64,000 nt of DNA. Origin: Alphaproteobacteria bacterium (GTDB lineage Bacteria > Pseudomonadota > Alphaproteobacteria > JAEULC01). Location of the stretch: contig JADLEG010000250.1 in the NCBI GenBank assembly GCA_020846275.1, forward strand, positions 9,875-73,874, written 5' to 3'. The stretch's first letter is position 1, and every line of letters begins with the position of its first letter. The notes beneath the pieces are model-generated. The model made no database searches. It was given only the letters and a program-made list of their open reading frames with translations, and had not been told where the DNA came from. Positions 4,108 to 42,393 of this stretch are shown here, piece by piece. A program made the position numbers and the translations under genes.

Positions 4108-5802
4108 CTAGTCGACGCCCCCGGTCGGGATCGGAAATACGACCTTTAGACAAAAATCGGCGGGACGCCTGGCGAGTTCCAGTTTGCCGCCAAGCTGCTG
4201 AACGAACCCCCGGACAAGGGTCTGGCTCAAGCCGTCCGAATCGGACAGCAAGGGTCGCGTCTCGCTGCGTATCAAAAGCTCTCCGCGGCCTTCGGGATGC
4301 AGCAGCAGTTCGATCCGCAGACTGCATCCATGCGCCGCGGCCGGTTCCGGATTCAAGCAATTGATGACGATCTCCGCGATCATCAACCCCAGCGGCCCAG
4401 CTTGGTCCGTGGACAGCTCCATCGGCGGCGCGATGATATCGATGCTGACGAGGTCACGGTCCTCGTCGTCAGCCATCCCGGCGAGTTGCGTCACCAGTTC
4501 GTTCAGGAACGATTGGATCTCGATCGCCCGCACCTCCTGGCGCCGATACATGTGCTGGTGCAGCAGCATCAGCGCGACGATGCGCTCCCGCGCGACATGG
4601 ATCGCCGAACGGGCCACGGGGTGGCGGATGCGATGCGCCTGAAGGCTGAGCATCGACGAGACGATCTGTAGGTTGTTCTTGACGCGATGATGGATCTCGT
4701 GGACGAGCTGGTCGCGCTGGGTCAGAAGCTCCTTCAGCTTCACTTCGCGGTCGGTCACCGTTTCCGTCACCTCGACAAAGCGCCTGGCCAGCCGGCGCAG
4801 TTCGGCCGGCATCGCCGGCAGACCGGGCGGGGGTGTGAACGGCACCTCTGACCCGCCATAGGAGCGGAACGCGTTTCCCAGCATCCGCAAAGGCTTCAGA
4901 ACGGAATAGTGGGCGCCAAAGGTGACGACCAGGACGCTGAGCCCCAGCAGCAGCACGATCTGCGTCAGGCGGAAGGCGAAGTCGGCATCGGCATGGCTGA
5001 TCGTGGGGCTGGCCGGCAAGGCGGCCATGAGCAGAAGGGAATCCGTCAATGGACGCACGGCATAGAAGACCTGTTCGCCGCTCTGGGTCCCGCTCTCGAA
5101 CACGGAATCGGTTCTCGCTGTCGACAGGCCACCGGCGACGGGCTGGGGCAGCAGCTCATCGCCGCCGACGATGTTCACGGCCCGGTCGCCGCCCCGCGGC
5201 AGGATCCACACGGCGCTACCTTCCGGCATGCGGCCATATCCGGGCATGCTGGCAAACGCCGCCACGGGCATCGTGGCGCCGACGGTGGCGACGATCCCAT
5301 CGTTGCCCGCAATGGGCAGCCCCGCCAACAAGGCGCCTCGGGATTCCGGGAATTCCACAGTGGTGAGCGCCACGGAGAAGCCGCCCGTGGTCTTGACCGA
5401 TTCGAAAAGCGCCGACGGGCTGAAGCCGCCGCCGCTGCGCCCGGTGCTGCACTTGAGATGGCCGATCTGGTCGAGCAGGAAGAAACCGCCGAAATACTTT
5501 CCGGTAGAGACGATCTTCTCGATCAGGCTGCGGTCGCAGGCAGGGGACGACGCCGAAGCGACTTGTGGGGCAAGCGCGGTCAGAAGTTGCTGCGTCGCCG
5601 CCAGGACTGTGGCCTGCTCGCGCAGCACGGCGTCGGCCAGCATGGCGACCACGCGGCGGCCTGCCGCCAAATCGGCTTCGCGCCGGTTGACCGCGTTCGA
5701 TATTGCAGCCACGACAACCGGAATCGTCACCAGTATCAGCAGGAGGACGAGACGGACCCTGACCGATAGGCGACCGACCCACCGCGGCTTCAAAGCACCC
5801 AC
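4108..5802 (-). CDS. Membrane sensor histidine kinase-like protein (HisKA_2) with degenerate ATP-binding domain
   Basis: Two TMs, periplasmic Cache-like and HAMP-like regions, H-box EIHHRVKNNLQ; G1 box replaced by IRSETRP. Confidence 0.85.
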   Translation of the reverse strand: MGALKPRWVGRLSVRVRLVLLLILVTIPVVVAAISNAVNRREADLAAGRRVVAMLADAVLREQATVLAATQQLLTALAPQVASASSPACDRSLIEKIVSTGKYFGGFFLLDQIGHLKCSTGRSGGGFSPSALFESVKTTGGFSVALTTVEFPESRGALLAGLPIAGNDGIVATVGATMPVAAFASMPGYGRMPEGSAVWILPRGGDRAVNIVGGDELLPQPVAGGLSTARTDSVFESGTQSGEQVFYAVRPLTDSLLLMAALPASPTISHADADFAFRLTQIVLLLGLSVLVVTFGAHYSVLKPLRMLGNAFRSYGGSEVPFTPPPGLPAMPAELRRLARRFVEVTETVTDREVKLKELLTQRDQLVHEIHHRVKNNLQIVSSMLSLQAHRIRHPVARSAIHVARERIVALMLLHQHMYRRQEVRAIEIQSFLNELVTQLAGMADDEDRDLVSIDIIAPPMELSTDQAGPLGLMIAEIVINCLNPEPAAAHGCSLRIELLLHPEGRGELLIRSETRPLLSDSDGLSQTLVRGFVQQLGGKLELARRPADFCLKVVFPIPTGGVD

Positions 5803-5907: not shown

Positions 5908-6050
5908 CTAGTGTCCCGATTCCGAGGTTCGTCAGTGTTTGCGACGAAAAGGACACGAGCAACTATTTGAGTCTAGTGCCCCTTTGGAACCCGAAGTTCG
6001 CCTCCGGTCTTGCGATCAAGCGAAGGCGAACTTCGGGTTCGGGGCACTAG
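5908..6050. repeat. CTAG-bounded palindromic mosaic repeat, copy 1 (two-unit, 24-nt internal deletion)
   Basis: Near-identical to 33497-33664; CTAG at 5908, 5973 and 6047; arms GAACCCGAAGTTCGCC/GGCGAACTTCGGGTTC. Confidence 0.9.
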
Positions 6051-12102: not shown

Positions 12103-12176
12103 CTAGTACCTCGAACCCGAAGTTCGCCATCGCTTGATCGCAAGACCGGAGACGAACTTCGGAATTGGGACACTAG
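12103..12176. repeat. CTAG-bounded palindromic repeat, copy 2 (single hybrid unit, inverted)
   Basis: Reverse complement = unit-A left arm + unit-B loop + unit-B right arm; CTAG at both ends. Confidence 0.88.
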
Positions 12177-19395: not shown

Positions 19396-20196
19396 CTAGG
19401 CGCTGGAATGCCGGGGCGTGCGCAGCCACAGCGCCTGGTCGATCATGGCTTTCAGCTTCTCGGGCTGGAACGGCTTGGCCATGACGAAGGCCGGCTCGGG
19501 ACCCTGCCCGGTCAGCAACCGCTCCGGAAAGCCGGTGATGAAGATGATCGTCGCGTCGCCGGTCTCCAGCATTTCCTGGGATGTCGCAATGCCATCCTCG
19601 TTGCCGGCAAGGCAGATGTCGCTGAGCACGATGTCCGGCCGCTCGCGCGCGAAGCGGGCAAGCGCGGCGCTGCGGGTCGAGGCGACGCCGCGGACGTCGT
19701 GCCCCCACGACCGCGCGGACTCCGCCAGATCCATGGCGATCAGCGCGTCGTCCTCGACGATCAGAATGCGGCCGCCCGGCGCAAGCCGCATCTGGGTGCG
19801 CACGACGGAGAGACGCCGCTCGACCTCCTTGGCGTCGATGCCCAGGATCAGCCCGGCCTCGGCGGCCGAGAACCCCTCGAGGTCCATCAGCAGCAGGACC
19901 TGCCGGTCGAGTTCGGCCGTGACGTTGCCGTAGTGCCGGTCATGCGTCGCGATGCCGCCGGAGCCGAACTGGTCGGCGCCGAACGACTGGCAGACCTTGT
20001 CCCAAACATTGTGGAACGCGATGAAGAGATCCTTGCGCGGAAAAGGCGTCCGCCGCAGCCATTGCGGCTCCTGATTGATGGTTTCCAGGCAGGTTCGCAC
20101 ATAAGTATCGCCGCGCTCGGTCGTGCCGGTCAGCGCGCGGGCGTACCGCCGCAAATCCGGGATAGCCGATGCAACCTCGCGTGCGTATTGGTCCAT
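19396..20196 (-). CDS. phyR: PhyR-type regulator, copy 2
   Basis: IPDLRRYARALTG sigma-like domain; REC IVEDD, LSDICL, FITGFPERLLTG, AKPF. Confidence 0.9.
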   Translation of the reverse strand: MDQYAREVASAIPDLRRYARALTGTTERGDTYVRTCLETINQEPQWLRRTPFPRKDLFIAFHNVWDKVCQSFGADQFGSGGIATHDRHYGNVTAELDRQVLLLMDLEGFSAAEAGLILGIDAKEVERRLSVVRTQMRLAPGGRILIVEDDALIAMDLAESARSWGHDVRGVASTRSAALARFARERPDIVLSDICLAGNEDGIATSQEMLETGDATIIFITGFPERLLTGQGPEPAFVMAKPFQPEKLKAMIDQALWLRTPRHSSA

Positions 20197-20230
20197 TTTA
20201 TCCCCCAGCCCGCTGAACGACCCATCCGCC

Positions 20231-20255
20231 AACGCGACTCCGCCCCGCCGGTTCC
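20231..20255 (-). promoter_or_regulatory. EcfG-type promoter GGAAC-N16-CGTT for phyR copy 2
   Basis: Exact consensus. Confidence 0.82.
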
Positions 20256-20292
20256 TCGGCTGGAAGGGCCCGAGAAACCGGCGGTTTGCGGG

Positions 20293-20317
20293 GGAACATT
20301 GTGCCAACCCTGCCGTT
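20293..20317 (+). promoter_or_regulatory. EcfG-type promoter GGAAC-N16-CGTT
   Basis: Exact consensus, divergent from the phyR2 promoter. Confidence 0.8.
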
Positions 20318-20350: not shown

Positions 20351-20530
20351 ATGCAACAGGAATGCTGGATGGGCGGGGAGGATGCCGAACGCCCCACCAA
20401 GGGCATGCCTCAAGGACGGCCGCCATCGGAGAAGGTCATCCGGAAGCAGGACGACGACGATATGGCAAAGGGCCGCCAACCGCCTTCCGCGCCCCGGCCG
20501 CCGCGGACCGAGCCTAATCCACAGGTCTAG
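20351..20530 (+). CDS. Small hydrophilic hypothetical protein (59 aa)
   Basis: CAGGAG RBS and exact EcfG promoter upstream. Confidence 0.55.
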   Translation: MQQECWMGGEDAERPTKGMPQGRPPSEKVIRKQDDDDMAKGRQPPSAPRPPRTEPNPQV

Positions 20531-20911: not shown

Positions 20912-21868
20912 CTAGCCCATTTCCTCGAGTACATGTTCCAACGGCGCTTCGATCGAGCAGACGACGCCCGACGGCGGGTAGGACAGGCGCACCCGGCCCC
21001 GCAATTCGGCCGGCAGCCCGCGCTGGATCAGCCGCGACCCGAAGCCCTGGCGCGTGGGAGGCTTCACAGCGGGCCCACCGCATTCCTGCCATGCCAGCGA
21101 CATGCGCCCATCGGCGGAGGTCCAGGAAACAACCACGCGGCCGGCTTCGGTCGACAACGCCCCGTACTTGATGGCGTTGGTGCAAAGTTCGTGCAACGCC
21201 ATCGAGACGATGACCGCGCTCTTCCGGCGCAGCCGCAACGATGGCCCCTCGATTTGGAAGCGCGCATCGTTCGCCGCCAGATGAGGACGCAGGGAGGCGG
21301 TCACGATGTCGCGCAATTCCGCGCCGATCCACGTATCGTCGGTCAACACGCTGTTAATGCTGCTCAGCGCGGCGAGCCGGGCGGTCAGAGCCTGGGTGAC
21401 GGGCGCGGCGACGCCGGCGTTCTTCAGCGTCTGGGCGGCGATCGCTTGCACCATCGTCAACATGTTCTTTACACGGTGGTTCAGTTCGTGGATCAGCAGC
21501 TCGCGGTGCGCCTCCGCATCCTTGCGGTCGGTGACGTCGCGAAACACGACGCCAAGCCCGTCCCCGAGCGGAAACAGCCGGTACGCGAGCCAGCGCCCGG
21601 AAATCACGACCGAGGGCGTCTCGGCAAGCACGGGTTGCCGCGTTTCCATGGCCTGGACGAACACGCCGCCCAGCGCCGTGTTGCGGGCTCCCGGAAAAAT
21701 ATCCCACAACACCCGTCCCAGCACGCTTTCCGCCGTGCGGCCGAAGTGTCTTGCCGCTGCGCTGTTGAAGCGGGTGATCCGCCACTCGCGATCGAGCGAA
21801 TAGAATCCCTCCCCGATCCCCTCCAGGATCGTCGTAAGCTCGTTGCCGGCTGCGGCCGCGTCGGGCAT
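20912..21868 (-). CDS. PAS-HWE histidine kinase
   Basis: PAS; ELNHRVKNMLTMVQAI, HELCTNAIKYGALS, WQECGGPAV..PTRQGFGSRLI. Confidence 0.93.
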   Translation of the reverse strand: MPDAAAAGNELTTILEGIGEGFYSLDREWRITRFNSAAARHFGRTAESVLGRVLWDIFPGARNTALGGVFVQAMETRQPVLAETPSVVISGRWLAYRLFPLGDGLGVVFRDVTDRKDAEAHRELLIHELNHRVKNMLTMVQAIAAQTLKNAGVAAPVTQALTARLAALSSINSVLTDDTWIGAELRDIVTASLRPHLAANDARFQIEGPSLRLRRKSAVIVSMALHELCTNAIKYGALSTEAGRVVVSWTSADGRMSLAWQECGGPAVKPPTRQGFGSRLIQRGLPAELRGRVRLSYPPSGVVCSIEAPLEHVLEEMG

Positions 21869-21954
21869 GGCGGGAAAACTACATCCGTTCAACGCCACGC
21901 GCCACGCGGCCGGGCGGACCTCACAGGTCCGAGAGTTACTGGCCAACAGGCCGA

Positions 21955-22254: not shown

Positions 22255-22279
22255 AAGGCGTCGGGTCTCCGCGGGTTCC
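22255..22279 (-). promoter_or_regulatory. EcfG-type promoter variant GGAAC-N16-CCTT
   Basis: Upstream of 22182; divergent from the 22296 promoter. Confidence 0.55.
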
Positions 22280-29305: not shown

Positions 29306-29334
29306 GTGTGGCCCCTCCTCCGGGGCGGAGAACA

Positions 29335-31550: not shown

Positions 31551-31570
31551 CGCTGCGCGACCGCTCCGAG

Positions 31571-31603
31571 AAAGGGCCCCGCCGATATCGGTGGGGCCTT
31601 TTT
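31571..31603 (+). terminator. Intrinsic terminator after the YflT-like gene
   Basis: AAAGGGCCCCGCCGA-ta-TCGGTGGGGCCTTTTT. Confidence 0.8.
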
Positions 31604-31647
31604 CATTGCCGCGTCCGACAGCGGGAAGGCGGCTGCCTCCCCCGATT

Positions 31648-31672
31648 GCAACCTTGGCAACATCGTCCCGTT
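31648..31672 (+). promoter_or_regulatory. EcfG-type promoter GCAAC-N16-CGTT
   Basis: Upstream of the small basic protein. Confidence 0.7.
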
Positions 31673-31734: not shown

Positions 31735-31941
31735 ATGGCCGAAAAGACCAAGCGTCGCTATTCGCCCAGCGTGGGCAATGACGTGAAAAAGGAGATGCAT
31801 CGCTACAAGCGCGGCACCGCGAAGAGCGGCCCGGGCGGCAAGGCCGGCGGGGTCAAGAACAAGAAGCAGGCAATCGCGATCGCGCTGTCGAAGGCGCGGA
31901 AGAAAGGGAAAAAAGTCCCGAGTCGGCGGAAGGCTGCCTGA
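31735..31941 (+). CDS. Small basic protein (DUF6496-like)
   Basis: AAGGAG RBS; VKKEMHRYKRGTAKSG..VKNKKQAIAIALSKARKKG. Confidence 0.82.
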   Translation: MAEKTKRRYSPSVGNDVKKEMHRYKRGTAKSGPGGKAGGVKNKKQAIAIALSKARKKGKKVPSRRKAA

Positions 31942-31980
31942 CGCCCGTCCACGTCCACCTCGCTATGCTGCGCGCCAAGG

Positions 31981-32050
31981 AAAAGAAAAGGCCGCCATCA
32001 TCTGGCGGCCGAGTTTAGGGAGGGGACCGAGGCGCCAAACGCCTTGGTGC
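31981..32050 (-). ncRNA. Candidate EcfG-dependent sRNA with anti-Shine-Dalgarno seed (~70 nt)
   Basis: 5' hairpin 32026-32048, single-stranded CCCCUCCCU, terminator GGCCGCCA/UGGCGGCC + UUUUCUUUU; no minus-strand CDS feeds this terminator. Confidence 0.65.
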
Positions 32051-32056
32051 AGTTCA

Positions 32057-32081
32057 AAGGCGCGGGACGGCACAGGGTTCC
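32057..32081 (-). promoter_or_regulatory. EcfG-type promoter variant GGAAC-N16-CCTT for the candidate sRNA
   Basis: Same variant as 22255; divergent from the NRAMP promoter; predicted start sits at the 5' hairpin. Confidence 0.6.
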
Positions 32082-32132: not shown

Positions 32133-32157
32133 GGAACTTGCCGGAACAGAGTGCGTT
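32133..32157 (+). promoter_or_regulatory. EcfG-type promoter GGAAC-N16-CGTT
   Basis: Exact consensus upstream of NRAMP. Confidence 0.82.
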
Positions 32158-32195: not shown

Positions 32196-33500
32196 ATGGA
32201 CGCGACGCCGAACATCGACGCGGCAGCCGATCAGCCGGCTGAACCAGACCAGCCGGACAAGCGCAGCTTCCTTGCCATGCTCGGCCCCGGGCTTGTCACC
32301 GGCGCCGCGGACGATGATCCCAGCGGCATTGCAACCTACAGCCAGGTCGGCGCCCAGTTCGGCTATGGCCTCTCCTGGACGTTGCTGTTCAGCTTTCCGC
32401 TGATGGCGGTGATCCAGTCCGTCAGCGCCCGGATCGGATGCGTGACGGGCTGCGGCATCGCCCAGAACCTGCGGCGCCACTACCCCGCTCCGCTGCTCTG
32501 GGTGGTAGTGTCGCTGCTGATCGTGGCCAACGTCGTCAATCTCGGCGCCGACCTTGGCGCCATGGGTGCGGCGCTCCACCTGCTCGTGGGCGGGCCGGAA
32601 CTCGCCTACACGATGCTTTTCGGACTGGCCTGCGCCCTGCTCGAGATCCTCGTCAGCTACAACCGGTATGCCGGCATCCTGAAATGGACGACGCTGTCGC
32701 TGTTCGCCTATGTGGCGGTCGCGTTCGCGGCGGGCGTTCCCTGGGGTACGGCCCTGTACCACACTTTCGTTCCGCAGATCGTCCTGGATGGGCAGCACGC
32801 CATGGCCATCGTCGCGATACTCGGTACGACCATCAGCCCCTACCTGTTCTTCTGGCAGGCGGGGCAGGAGGTAGAGGAACAGCGCAGGCGCCACGTGAAG
32901 CCGCTCTGCGTGGCACCACGCCAGGCGGGGGACGAGCTCGCCCGCATCCGCACCGACACCATTCTCGGCATGGGCGTGTCCAACCTGATCGCGCTGTTCA
33001 TCGTGTTCGCCGCCGCGGCGACGCTTAACGCCAAGGGCGTCACCGACATCCAGACCTCGGCCCAGGCCGCCGAAGCCCTTCGTCCGGTCGCGGGCGACGC
33101 GGCATTCTTCCTGTTCGCGGCGGGCATCGTCGGGACGGGGATGCTGGCGGTTCCGGTCCTGGCCGGCTCGGTGGCCTATGCCGTCAGCGAGATGTTCCGG
33201 TGGAAGGAGGGCTTGAACCGCCGGCCGCGCCAGGCCAAGGCCTTCTACGCGGTCATTGCGGCCACTACCCTCGCCGGCGTGGGGCTCAATTTCATGTCCG
33301 TCGACCCGATCAAGGCGCTCTACTGGAGCGCCGTTGTCAATGGGGTGCTGGCCGCACCGCTGATGGCGATCATGATGCTGATCGCGGTGAACCGACAGAT
33401 CATGGGGCGACTGACGCTCAGTCCCGCCATGATTATGGGCGGATGGATGGCAACGATCGCAATGGCGGCCGCCACGGTCGCGTTTGCGGTCGCGGACTAG
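32196..33500 (+). CDS. NRAMP family divalent metal cation transporter
   Basis: LGPGLVTGAADDDPSGIATYSQVGAQFGY, ILGTTISPYLFFWQ. Confidence 0.92.
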   Translation: MDATPNIDAAADQPAEPDQPDKRSFLAMLGPGLVTGAADDDPSGIATYSQVGAQFGYGLSWTLLFSFPLMAVIQSVSARIGCVTGCGIAQNLRRHYPAPLLWVVVSLLIVANVVNLGADLGAMGAALHLLVGGPELAYTMLFGLACALLEILVSYNRYAGILKWTTLSLFAYVAVAFAAGVPWGTALYHTFVPQIVLDGQHAMAIVAILGTTISPYLFFWQAGQEVEEQRRRHVKPLCVAPRQAGDELARIRTDTILGMGVSNLIALFIVFAAAATLNAKGVTDIQTSAQAAEALRPVAGDAAFFLFAAGIVGTGMLAVPVLAGSVAYAVSEMFRWKEGLNRRPRQAKAFYAVIAATTLAGVGLNFMSVDPIKALYWSAVVNGVLAAPLMAIMMLIAVNRQIMGRLTLSPAMIMGGWMATIAMAAATVAFAVAD

Positions 33501-33664
33501 TGTCCTGATTCCGAAGTTCGTCAGTGCTTGCGACGCACGCCGTACGAACTTCGGAATCGAAAAGGACACGAGCAACTATTTCAAGTCTAGTGCCCCTTTT
33601 GAACCCGAAGTTCGCCTCCGGTCTTGCGATCAAGAGAGGGCGAACTTCGGGTTCGGGGCACCAG
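33497..33664. repeat. CTAG-bounded palindromic mosaic repeat, copy 3 (complete two-unit form)
   Basis: Hairpin A (GATTCCGAAGTTCGT/ACGAACTTCGGAATC), linker, CTAG at 33587, hairpin B; right end CCAG. Confidence 0.9.
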
Positions 33665-33681
33665 GCAGTGCCGCCGCGAAC

Positions 33682-40887: not shown

Positions 40888-42393
40888 ATGCAAGGAATGC
40901 TCGACGCCTCGCTGGCGGTCCTCCTCCCCAACACGATCTTCTTCCTGGTCGGCGGGACGGTGCTGGGCGTGATTCTCGGGGCGATCCCCGGCGTCACGGG
41001 CGCCATGGGCATCGCGCTCATGCTGCCGCTCAGCTTCTACATGACCGTCAACAACGCGCTGACCATGATGGTGTCGATGTATGTCGGCGCCATCGCGGGC
41101 GGGTTGGTCACCGCGATCCTGCTGCGCATTCCGGGCGAACCGTCCTCGATCGTCACGACGTTCGACGGCAACCCGATGGCGCGCAAGGGCCAGCCCGGCC
41201 GCGCGCTCGGCTATGCCGTGGGCGCCGCCCTGTTCGGCGGCCTCGTGTCCTGGGCGGCGCTGGTCACGCTGACCTACCCGCTGTCCGAGATCGCGGCGCA
41301 GCTTCGGCCGTTCGACATCCTGTCGCTGGTTCTGATGGCGCTCGTCCTGATCGCAGCGCTTGGGCAGGGGTCGGTGATAAAGGGGCTGGTCGCGGGATTG
41401 CTCGGAATCCTGGTGTCGATGCCCGGCACCGACCCGTCCACCGGCGCGCTGCGACTGACCTTCGGCTTCCACGATCTCGATGCCGGTTTCTCGACGCTCG
41501 CCGTGCTGATCGGCGCCTACGCCGTGGCGCAGGTCCTGTCCGACATCATCGATGTCGAGCGCAAGATGGAGATGGTCGAAGCGACCGCCGGTCGGATGTG
41601 GATTCCGCTCAAGGAGTGGAAAGCGCAGAGCTGGAACCTGATCCGCTCCTCGCTGATCGGCACCTGGGTCGGCATCATGCCGGGCATCGGCGCGACGGTC
41701 GGCTCGCTGGTCTCGTACTCGGTCGCCAAGACGATGTCGAAAACGCCGGAGAAATTCGGCACCGGCCACGCCGAGGGCATCGTCGCATCGGAATGCGGCA
41801 ACAACGCGACCGTGGGCGGCGCGCTGATCCCGATGATCGCCATGGGCATTCCGGGCAGCGTCACCGACGTGTTCCTGCTGGCCGCGCTGATCATCCACGG
41901 CCTGCAACCCGGCCCGATGCTGTTCACCAACCATCCCGAGGTCGTCTACATCATCTTCGCCGCCTGCCTGATCTCGCATTTCGTCCTGTTCCTCATCATG
42001 ACCGCGGGCATCCGCTACCTTGCCAAGCTCACGACCGTGCCGACCTGGTACCTGTTCCCGATCATCCTGCTGTTCTGCGTGATCGGCGCGTTCGCCGAGA
42101 ACAACCGCGTATTCGACGTGTTCGTGATGCTCGGATTCGCCGTCGCCGGCTTCGCGATGGAGAAGACCGGCTTCTCGCTGGGCGGCTTTGTCATCGGGTT
42201 CATCCTTGGCCCCATCACCGAGAAGAGCCTTCGCGCCGGCCTGACGCTGTCGGACGGCTCCTACCTCGACATCTTCATGCATCCGGTCTCCGCCATCTGC
42301 GTCGTGCTGGCCGCGATCATGTTCGTCTGGTCGTTGCGCTCGCAGCACCGACTCAACAGGCGGATCGAGCAGACCGTGTACGAGACGGATTGA
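40888..42393 (+). CDS. tctA: Tripartite tricarboxylate transporter large subunit
   Basis: GAIPGVTG, ILLRIPGEPSSIVTTFDG, ASECGNNA, GIPGS. Confidence 0.95.
   Translation: MQGMLDASLAVLLPNTIFFLVGGTVLGVILGAIPGVTGAMGIALMLPLSFYMTVNNALTMMVSMYVGAIAGGLVTAILLRIPGEPSSIVTTFDGNPMARKGQPGRALGYAVGAALFGGLVSWAALVTLTYPLSEIAAQLRPFDILSLVLMALVLIAALGQGSVIKGLVAGLLGILVSMPGTDPSTGALRLTFGFHDLDAGFSTLAVLIGAYAVAQVLSDIIDVERKMEMVEATAGRMWIPLKEWKAQSWNLIRSSLIGTWVGIMPGIGATVGSLVSYSVAKTMSKTPEKFGTGHAEGIVASECGNNATVGGALIPMIAMGIPGSVTDVFLLAALIIHGLQPGPMLFTNHPEVVYIIFAACLISHFVLFLIMTAGIRYLAKLTTVPTWYLFPIILLFCVIGAFAENNRVFDVFVMLGFAVAGFAMEKTGFSLGGFVIGFILGPITEKSLRAGLTLSDGSYLDIFMHPVSAICVVLAAIMFVWSLRSQHRLNRRIEQTVYETD

Follow-up and report, generated by a model that had tools for sequence, protein, structure and literature searches.

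Results

A minus-strand element between the DUF6496 and NRAMP genes

The DNA analyzed here, which we call the window throughout, is a stretch of 64,000 nucleotides from an uncultured wastewater and activated-sludge bacterium. The element of interest lies on the minus strand between a DUF6496 gene and an NRAMP transporter gene, both of which are on the plus strand, as an earlier note on this DNA had already stated. The locus comprises the following features.

31735–31941, plus strand: gene for the DUF6496 protein (68 aa), flanking the RNA
32196–33500, plus strand: NRAMP transporter gene, flanking the RNA
32133–32157, plus strand: divergent consensus EcfG-type promoter of NRAMP, GGAAC-N16-CGTT, kept in the relative L083 (see below) at 4350–4375
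32081–32077, minus strand: −35-like box GGAAC (GGAACCC with the next two bases), read directly
32060–32057, minus strand: −10-like box CCTT, separated from GGAAC by a 16-nt spacer, read directly
32050–31981, minus strand: predicted small RNA of ~70 nt, with an inferred 5′ end
32048–32026, minus strand: 5′ hairpin ACC-A-AGGCGU / UUG / GCGCCU-C-GGU, from direct reading and the fold
32025–32011, minus strand: single-stranded seed CCCCUCCCUAAACUC, unpaired in the predicted fold
32023–32017, minus strand: CCUCCCU core directly 3′ of the 5′ hairpin, unpaired in the minimum free energy (MFE) and centroid folds
32010–31990, minus strand: intrinsic terminator hairpin GGCCGCCA-GAUGA-UGGCGGCC, from the terminator scan
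31989–31981, minus strand: U-tract UUUUCUUUU forming the 3′ tail, from direct reading and the terminator scan

Direct reading of the minus strand from 32081 to 31981 yields every part that the earlier note had described there, namely a GGAAC-N16-CCTT motif, a hairpin, a single-stranded anti-Shine–Dalgarno (anti-SD) stretch, and a terminator. Six bases past CCTT, the strand continues as GC-ACCAAGGCGU-UUG-GCGCCUCGGU. The 5′ hairpin at 32048–32026 has nine pairs, one A/C mismatch that forms a 1 × 1 internal loop, and the loop UUG. The U at 32026, which also closes this hairpin, makes up the 10-mer UCCCCUCCCU together with the first nine bases of the seed. The terminator scan of the minus strand gives a GC-rich stem of eight pairs followed by UUUUCUUUU, and downstream of this hairpin, the strand reads CUUUUCUUUU as far as 31981. 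The U-tract at the 3′ end is likely to be the Hfq-binding end. On the plus-strand side of the terminator hairpin, only GAGUUUAGGG follows, such that the U-run is confined to the minus strand.

When folded on its own, the 70-nt RNA (32050–31981) forms two hairpins with the C-rich stretch unpaired between them, at −30.3 kcal/mol and with a z-score of −3.27; one of 200 shuffled sequences folds equally well. The MFE and centroid structures both contain the 5′ hairpin.

Several other elements surround the two flanking genes. The DUF6496 gene has a promoter-like sequence of its own, GCAAC-N16-CGTT at 31648–31672 on the plus strand, in which the −10 follows the consensus and the −35 deviates from it, and a strong plus-strand intrinsic terminator, where a weak Rfam match to ctRNA_p42d also falls, follows the YflT-like gene at 31569–31609. 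Palindromic intergenic repeats of ~70 nt with the core CCGAAGTTCG...CGAACTTCGG occur at 5975–6048, ~12105–12175, 33501–33570, and 33590–33665. Two of these copies stand in tandem immediately past the NRAMP stop codon, and one copy is the source of a spurious mir-3150 Rfam match. In the metagenome runs, the region 33346–33679 has 10 to 20 times the contig depth of its neighbors, as is expected of a multi-copy REP- or MITE-like element.

Conservation of the RNA in a diverged relative

A search with the DUF6496 protein identified one diverged syntenic relative, the NCBI MAG GCA_020851015.1 ("Alphaproteobacteria bacterium"; L083). The gene order common to the two genomes is GT4, CBS, PRC, PepSY-like, YflT-like, DUF6496, the RNA, NRAMP, orf79, and LigD. 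Coding DNA is 75 to 85% identical between them, identity at the third codon positions of DUF6496 is 49%, and the intergenic flanks contain indels. From hairpin 1 to the terminator stem, by comparison, the RNA differs by a single substitution (UAAACU to UACACU), and near-identity extends from about 32054 to the terminator. The terminator stem is kept and its loop is altered by a 1-nt indel; on the minus strand, a run of U persists with different letters (GUUUUUUU). These sequences indicate that the RNA body is under strong purifying selection. Hairpin 1 shows no covariation between the window and L083 and gains no support of that kind, as there is only one diverged homologue and its stems are identical.

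Two open reading frames on the minus strand were set aside as coding genes. A 36-aa frame at 31963–32073 starts upstream of the predicted 5′ end of the RNA, and since its frame is broken in L083 by the 1-nt indel in the terminator loop, a conserved ORF is ruled out here. A long frame on the minus strand opposite NRAMP is a shadow ORF in GC-rich DNA.

Together with the terminator scan and the z-score of the fold, the strong purifying selection supports what the earlier note had claimed, a small RNA gene on the minus strand with an exposed anti-SD stretch. Judged from its sequence, the flagged stretch very probably represents a genuine gene for a small regulatory RNA. We weighed against this the possibility that there is no RNA gene at all, the hairpin being a bidirectional terminator or 3′-UTR element of DUF6496 and the conserved block being regulatory DNA of the NRAMP promoter. 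Three observations would fit such an element: no other obvious terminator lies between DUF6496 and NRAMP, the plus strand carries an A-run ahead of the hairpin, and one metatranscriptome contig (31835–32188) runs from DUF6496 through the RNA region into NRAMP. Against it, only GAGUUUAGGG follows the hairpin on the plus side, the minus-strand U-run is kept in both genomes, and conservation extends 60 nt past the terminator and takes in a second hairpin as well as the family seed. The Rfam model discussed below also matches the minus strand only. We consider this explanation very unlikely.

The expression data comprise four metatranscriptomic or transcriptomic runs, available only as assembled unstranded contigs with a word depth of about 3. 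The contigs over the RNA extend well beyond both of its ends, and coverage is equally patchy over 10 kb. Unstranded contigs of such low depth neither support nor refute a discrete RNA.

Outside L083, the RNA did not reappear at this locus. None of 80 genome loci with a 63 to 79% identical NRAMP carries an adjacent element made up of CCTCCCT plus a terminator, and two further DUF6496 homologues lie in unrelated contexts. Two loci of more distant relatives with a homologue of the YflT-like 205-aa protein (L122 and L123; 63–67% identity) have PhyR and LigD nearby and lack DUF6496, NRAMP, and the RNA. At these two loci, the pair of PepSY-like and YflT-like genes directly adjoins phyR and ligD. This arrangement makes the DUF6496–RNA–NRAMP segment look like a lineage-specific insertion into a stress locus, and the synteny searches with NRAMP, DUF6496, and the YflT-like protein together confine the RNA at this locus to a narrow lineage.

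Similarity to the αR8 family and Rfam model RF00519

At the gathering threshold, an Rfam scan of the whole window returned no match. With relaxed thresholds, the model RF00519 (suhB, "Makes More Granules Regulator RNA") matches 32044–31975 on the minus strand in a full-model alignment of 34.7 bits, which falls below the curated (gathering) cut-off of 41 bits. This corresponds to an E-value of 3.3e-5 when 1 kb is searched and of 0.0021 when all 4227 families are run over the entire 64 kb. This is the sole suhB match in the 64 kb, it occurs on the minus strand only, and the RNA of L083 scores 31.5 bits against the same model. The earlier note had called the RNA undescribed and had itself named a match to an already described Rfam family as evidence to the contrary; with 34.7 bits and a window-wide E of 0.0021, RF00519 provides such a match. 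The AbcR1/2 (αr15) and NfeR1 (αr14) families gave no Rfam match in the region at E ≤ 10.

The RF00519 match spans the single-stranded CCUCCCUA-ACU and the terminator and leaves the short 5′ hairpin of the model unmatched. The window RNA has a 5′ hairpin of nine pairs versus the four-pair hairpin of the RF00519 consensus, and this mismatch lowers the score. The defining traits of αR8 RNAs are a Rho-independent terminator, an internal single-stranded 10-mer UUUCCUCCCU that is said to be common to all members, and a weak hairpin preceding it (PMC12559287). The corresponding 10-mer of both the window and L083, UCCCCUCCCU, matches this sequence at 8 of 10 positions, the two differences being U-to-C changes.

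A BLAST search with the element against plasmids and chromids yielded an unannotated locus in Indioceanicola profundi that exceeds the RF00519 cut-off with 56.8 bits and served as a positive control. It lies on a 1.18-Mb "plasmid" (chromid), NZ_CP030127.1 (819,4xx; L086:1430–1550), and reads ...GGGCGUUUCCUCCCUAAACUCAGGCCGCCGUUACUGGCGGCCUUUUUUCUUUU, with a seed, stem, and tail almost identical to those of the window RNA. Common to both are CCUCCCUAAACUC, the GGCCGCC/GGCGGCC stem, and a UUUU(UU)CUUUU tail; the differences are limited to the promoter, the genomic neighborhood, the 5′ hairpin, and two positions of the 10-mer. That the seed, terminator, and U-tail are shared with an above-cut-off member of RF00519 is a second reason why "undescribed" does not hold. 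A TGC-GGT-GCA dyad overlaps the promoter region of the Indioceanicola RNA. We take this TGC-N3-GCA dyad to be the regulator box of mmgR promoters, and no such box occurs upstream of the window RNA.

A pattern scan of metagenomes with CCCTCCCTAMACTCGGCC returned two marine αR8-like types along with chance matches, and no copy of the window RNA variant. The marine types have the same seed–terminator module, including CCUCCCUAAACUC, with different 5′ hairpins, and score 30.7 to 35.6 bits against RF00519, below the cut-off. Across the set of αR8-like RNAs, two pairs of the terminator stem change on both sides, that is, in a compensatory manner.

αR8 RNAs are reported from all Alphaproteobacteria except Rickettsiales and usually occur as a single copy adjoining an N-formylglutamate amidohydrolase gene; Caulobacter has four siblings, SisA–D, at separate loci and with unrelated promoters (PMC12559287). 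No amidohydrolase gene adjoins the window RNA, whose neighbors are DUF6496 and NRAMP. This points to an extra or relocated copy and does not argue against kinship, because the paralogous copies of Caulobacter lack the linkage as well. Since three strict tests failed, namely the Rfam cut-off, the exact 10-mer, and the amidohydrolase linkage, we regard the RNA as a divergent αR8-like variant and not as a plain member of the family. The RF00519 cut-off evidently excludes lineage-specific variants in which the 5′ hairpin has been replaced and the seed and terminator are retained.

On balance, we favor the reading that the window encodes a minus-strand, trans-acting αR8 relative of ~70 nt that has the architecture of the family, represses by means of its anti-SD stretch, and was relocated to, or duplicated into, a stress cluster. 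The predicted order of parts is that of αR8: the 5′ hairpin is followed by a single-stranded C-rich anti-SD stretch UCCCCUCCCUAAACUC, and the RNA ends in an intrinsic terminator and its U-tail. Characterized members suggest that the RNA would bind Hfq through this U-tail and that its CCUCCC stretch would pair with the G-rich ribosome-binding sites of several mRNAs and block their translation. αR8 RNAs, SisA of Caulobacter among them, are Hfq-dependent and repress through the anti-SD 10-mer (PMC12559287). MmgR of Sinorhizobium is likewise Hfq-dependent and limits polyhydroxybutyrate accumulation (PMC7143759). In Sphingopyxis granuli, SuhB acts with Hfq to block the SD regions of thnR and phbB, and stress resistance requires this RNA (10.64898/2025.12.09.693200). 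The copy in the window would be a relocated or extra one, placed between DUF6496 and NRAMP among EcfG-type promoters.

The promoter and the stress cluster

Strict GGAAC-N16/17-CGTT sites number 11 in the window, against 0.89 expected, and its stress genes comprise phyR, an HWE histidine kinase, CsbD, PRC, CBS, the YflT-like gene, and DUF6496. Two features at phyR belong to this cluster.

About 19396–20200, minus strand: phyR, 12 kb from the RNA
20231–20317: two divergent, overlapping EcfG-type promoters at phyR

The 11 strict promoters, phyR, and the HWE kinase bear out the earlier note's view of the region as a general-stress island. Near phyR, a 51-aa ORF of the size of nepR lies at 20362–20517 on the plus strand, and an HWE/PAS histidine kinase is encoded at 20912–21946 on the minus strand; Pfam recognizes no ecfG in the ~400 bp that separate the two. 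At the RNA itself, the −35 boxes of the RNA and NRAMP promoters are divergent and 52 nt apart, and the two promoters thus stand back-to-back, as had been noted before.

Use of this promoter by EcfG, the general stress sigma factor, is plausible. Its −10 is CCTT, and all 11 strict sites in the window use CGTT. Relaxed sites of the form GGAAC-N16/17-NNTT other than CGTT occur 11 times, with 6.7 ± 2.8 expected, and are not enriched; the motif alone is therefore not evidence. In L083, GGAACCC is identical and lies at the same spacing (GGAAC-N16-GCTT), and the spacer and the upstream DNA differ. Neither a scan nor inspection by eye revealed a sigma-70 promoter for the RNA, and a reading as a sigma-54 promoter, also considered by eye, does not fit.

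A second GGAAC-N16-CCTT lies at 22279–22255 on the minus strand, 70 nt upstream of a gene (22182–21955, minus) for a charged protein of 75 aa (MTQRNEGEGNRTAARNYNEE...) that has no Pfam match. GGAAC-N16-CCTT may thus be a recurrent weak variant of the EcfG promoter in the source organism. The idea that the promoter and 5′ hairpin of the RNA were copied from the promoter and leader of this gene was rejected, since the local alignment scores 26 there and 27 to 29 elsewhere in the window.

The same αR8-like trans-acting RNA might also be driven by another sigma factor or an activator, in which case GGAAC-N16-CCTT would be fortuitous and the gene would merely be located in a stress cluster. The chance frequency of non-CGTT variants and the CGTT of every strong site speak for this, as do the unrelated promoters of other αR8 members, which depend on NtrC/AniA in Sinorhizobium and on a LysR regulator in Sphingopyxis. 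The LysR-driven suhB of Sphingopyxis has a regulon that is largely independent of the stress response. Several observations weigh on the other side: GGAACCC is kept at a fixed distance in L083 amid a diverged spacer and flanks, the scan gave no sigma-70-like promoter, the TGC-N3-GCA box of the Indioceanicola copy is missing, and a second GGAAC-N16-CCTT precedes a small gene. Moreover, among the putative, best-scoring EcfG motifs of EcfG-regulated genes in Sphingomonas melonis, some have the similar non-GTT −10 boxes GCTTT, AATT, and CATT (PMC6599016, Table 1). We consider a fortuitous motif rather unlikely, and on sequence grounds, the chances that EcfG controls the RNA appear about even.

A bolder version of the αR8 reading is that the RNA is a sibling captured by the general stress response, driven by EcfG from its non-consensus promoter and equipped with the C-richer seed UCCCCUCCCU, which would give this response a post-transcriptional arm and make the RNA a functional analogue of GsrN with an independent origin in another RNA family. 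We put this forward tentatively, as a possibility less probable than its negation. Such a captured sibling might also dampen its own divergent neighbor, NRAMP.

Predicted targets and action in cis or trans

The earlier note had named targets for the seed, among them the leader of the GT4 gene. The complementarity is indeed present, with GGAGGGG at about 29318–29312 in the GT4 leader, one base off the 29311–29317 given before. Specificity for these targets did not hold up: they are ordinary ribosome-binding sites, and the GT4 pairing with the seed, at −20.1 kcal/mol in the window versus −12.2 kcal/mol in L083, is lost in the relative. The best predicted targets in the window are likewise ordinary G-rich ribosome-binding sites, and as the seed is complementary to any strong site of this kind, the named targets are generic. 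Among the neighboring genes, the NRAMP leader has the best conserved pairing (−20.5 kcal/mol in the window and −15.8 kcal/mol in L083). From one window and one relative, we claim no specific target.

Apart from the RNA's own locus, the strongest pairing with the seed region anywhere in the window (−27.4 kcal/mol) lies at 40945–40916 on the minus strand (GUGUUGGGGAGGAGGACC). This stretch is antisense to a 605-aa CDS, and the pairing is therefore probably due to chance.

The placement of the RNA raises the question of whether it acts mainly in cis, either as an antisense RNA to plus-strand read-through from DUF6496 into NRAMP or by interference with the divergent NRAMP promoter. Its complementarity to any such read-through would be perfect, its gene converges with DUF6496 and diverges from NRAMP, only 52 nt away, and its conserved pairing with the NRAMP leader would suit a local role. 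Yet homologues with the same seed and terminator occur in unrelated contexts and act in trans, none of the 80 other NRAMP loci has an adjacent RNA of this kind, and the DUF6496–RNA–NRAMP arrangement is confined to one narrow lineage. A mainly cis-acting RNA is, in our estimation, a remote prospect, and the trans-acting αR8 relative remains our preferred explanation.

Discussion

Few small RNA families of Alphaproteobacteria are as widespread as αR8, which has links to carbon storage, catabolite repression, and stress survival. Placed in a stress cluster behind an ECF-type promoter, the RNA described here would be a first hint that an αR8 sibling can come under direct control of EcfG; in Sphingopyxis, the effect of αR8 on stress survival did not depend on the general stress response. 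For now, our result amounts to an annotation correction and one testable idea. What may be new concerns only the wiring, that is, the position in the stress cluster, a stress-sigma-like promoter divergent from that of NRAMP, a replaced 5′ hairpin, and a C-richer seed.

Relation to known small RNAs

Compared with the characterized αR8 RNAs, MmgR of Sinorhizobium meliloti, SuhB of Sphingopyxis granuli TFA, and SisA–D of Caulobacter crescentus, the window RNA is similar in size (about 70–77 nt) and in the order of its parts, a 5′ hairpin, a single-stranded CCUCCCU anti-SD stretch, and an intrinsic terminator. The family is also known to include additional copies that occupy new loci and have unrelated promoters. 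The window RNA differs in that its 5′ hairpin is longer and unrelated in sequence, its 10-mer is UCCCCUCCCU instead of UUUCCUCCCU, and its score is 34.7 bits against a cut-off of 41. It further has an ECF-type −35 and no amidohydrolase neighbor.

In AbcR1/2 and NfeR1, the anti-SD motifs lie in hairpin loops, and these RNAs are longer than the window RNA. They resemble it in being Hfq-dependent and in directing C/U-rich anti-SD motifs at ribosome-binding sites (reviewed in PMC7143759).

GsrN of Caulobacter is the closest parallel in concept, as C-rich RNAs driven by a stress sigma factor near the stress locus are already known from GsrN and GsrN-like RNAs (PMC5869019). The window RNA is likewise near phyR (12 kb) and would act alike, with a stress-sigma-driven, exposed C-run on the G-tracts of mRNA leaders. 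We therefore considered whether it is an orthologue of GsrN, an EcfG-dependent C-rich-loop RNA, and not an αR8 relative at all. A location near the stress locus, an ECF-type −35, and an exposed C-rich stretch are the traits by which Tien et al. selected candidate GsrN-like RNAs (PMC5869019). Compared by its description, however, GsrN is an RNA of ~100 nt that has a six-C tract in the loop of its 5′ hairpin, whereas the window RNA is about 70 nt long and carries its C-rich stretch in the linker between hairpins. Furthermore, GsrN is processed into isoforms and activates katG, the promoters of GsrN and GsrN-like RNAs were defined by strict GGAAC/CGTT matches, and sequence similarity to GsrN is reported only within Caulobacteraceae (PMC5869019). 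The 3′ two-thirds of the window RNA are instead nearly identical to an αR8 member, and orthology to GsrN appears extremely improbable. Should the αR8 relative prove to be under EcfG control, different lineages would have recruited different RNA families for the same job, GsrN in Caulobacter and αR8 here.
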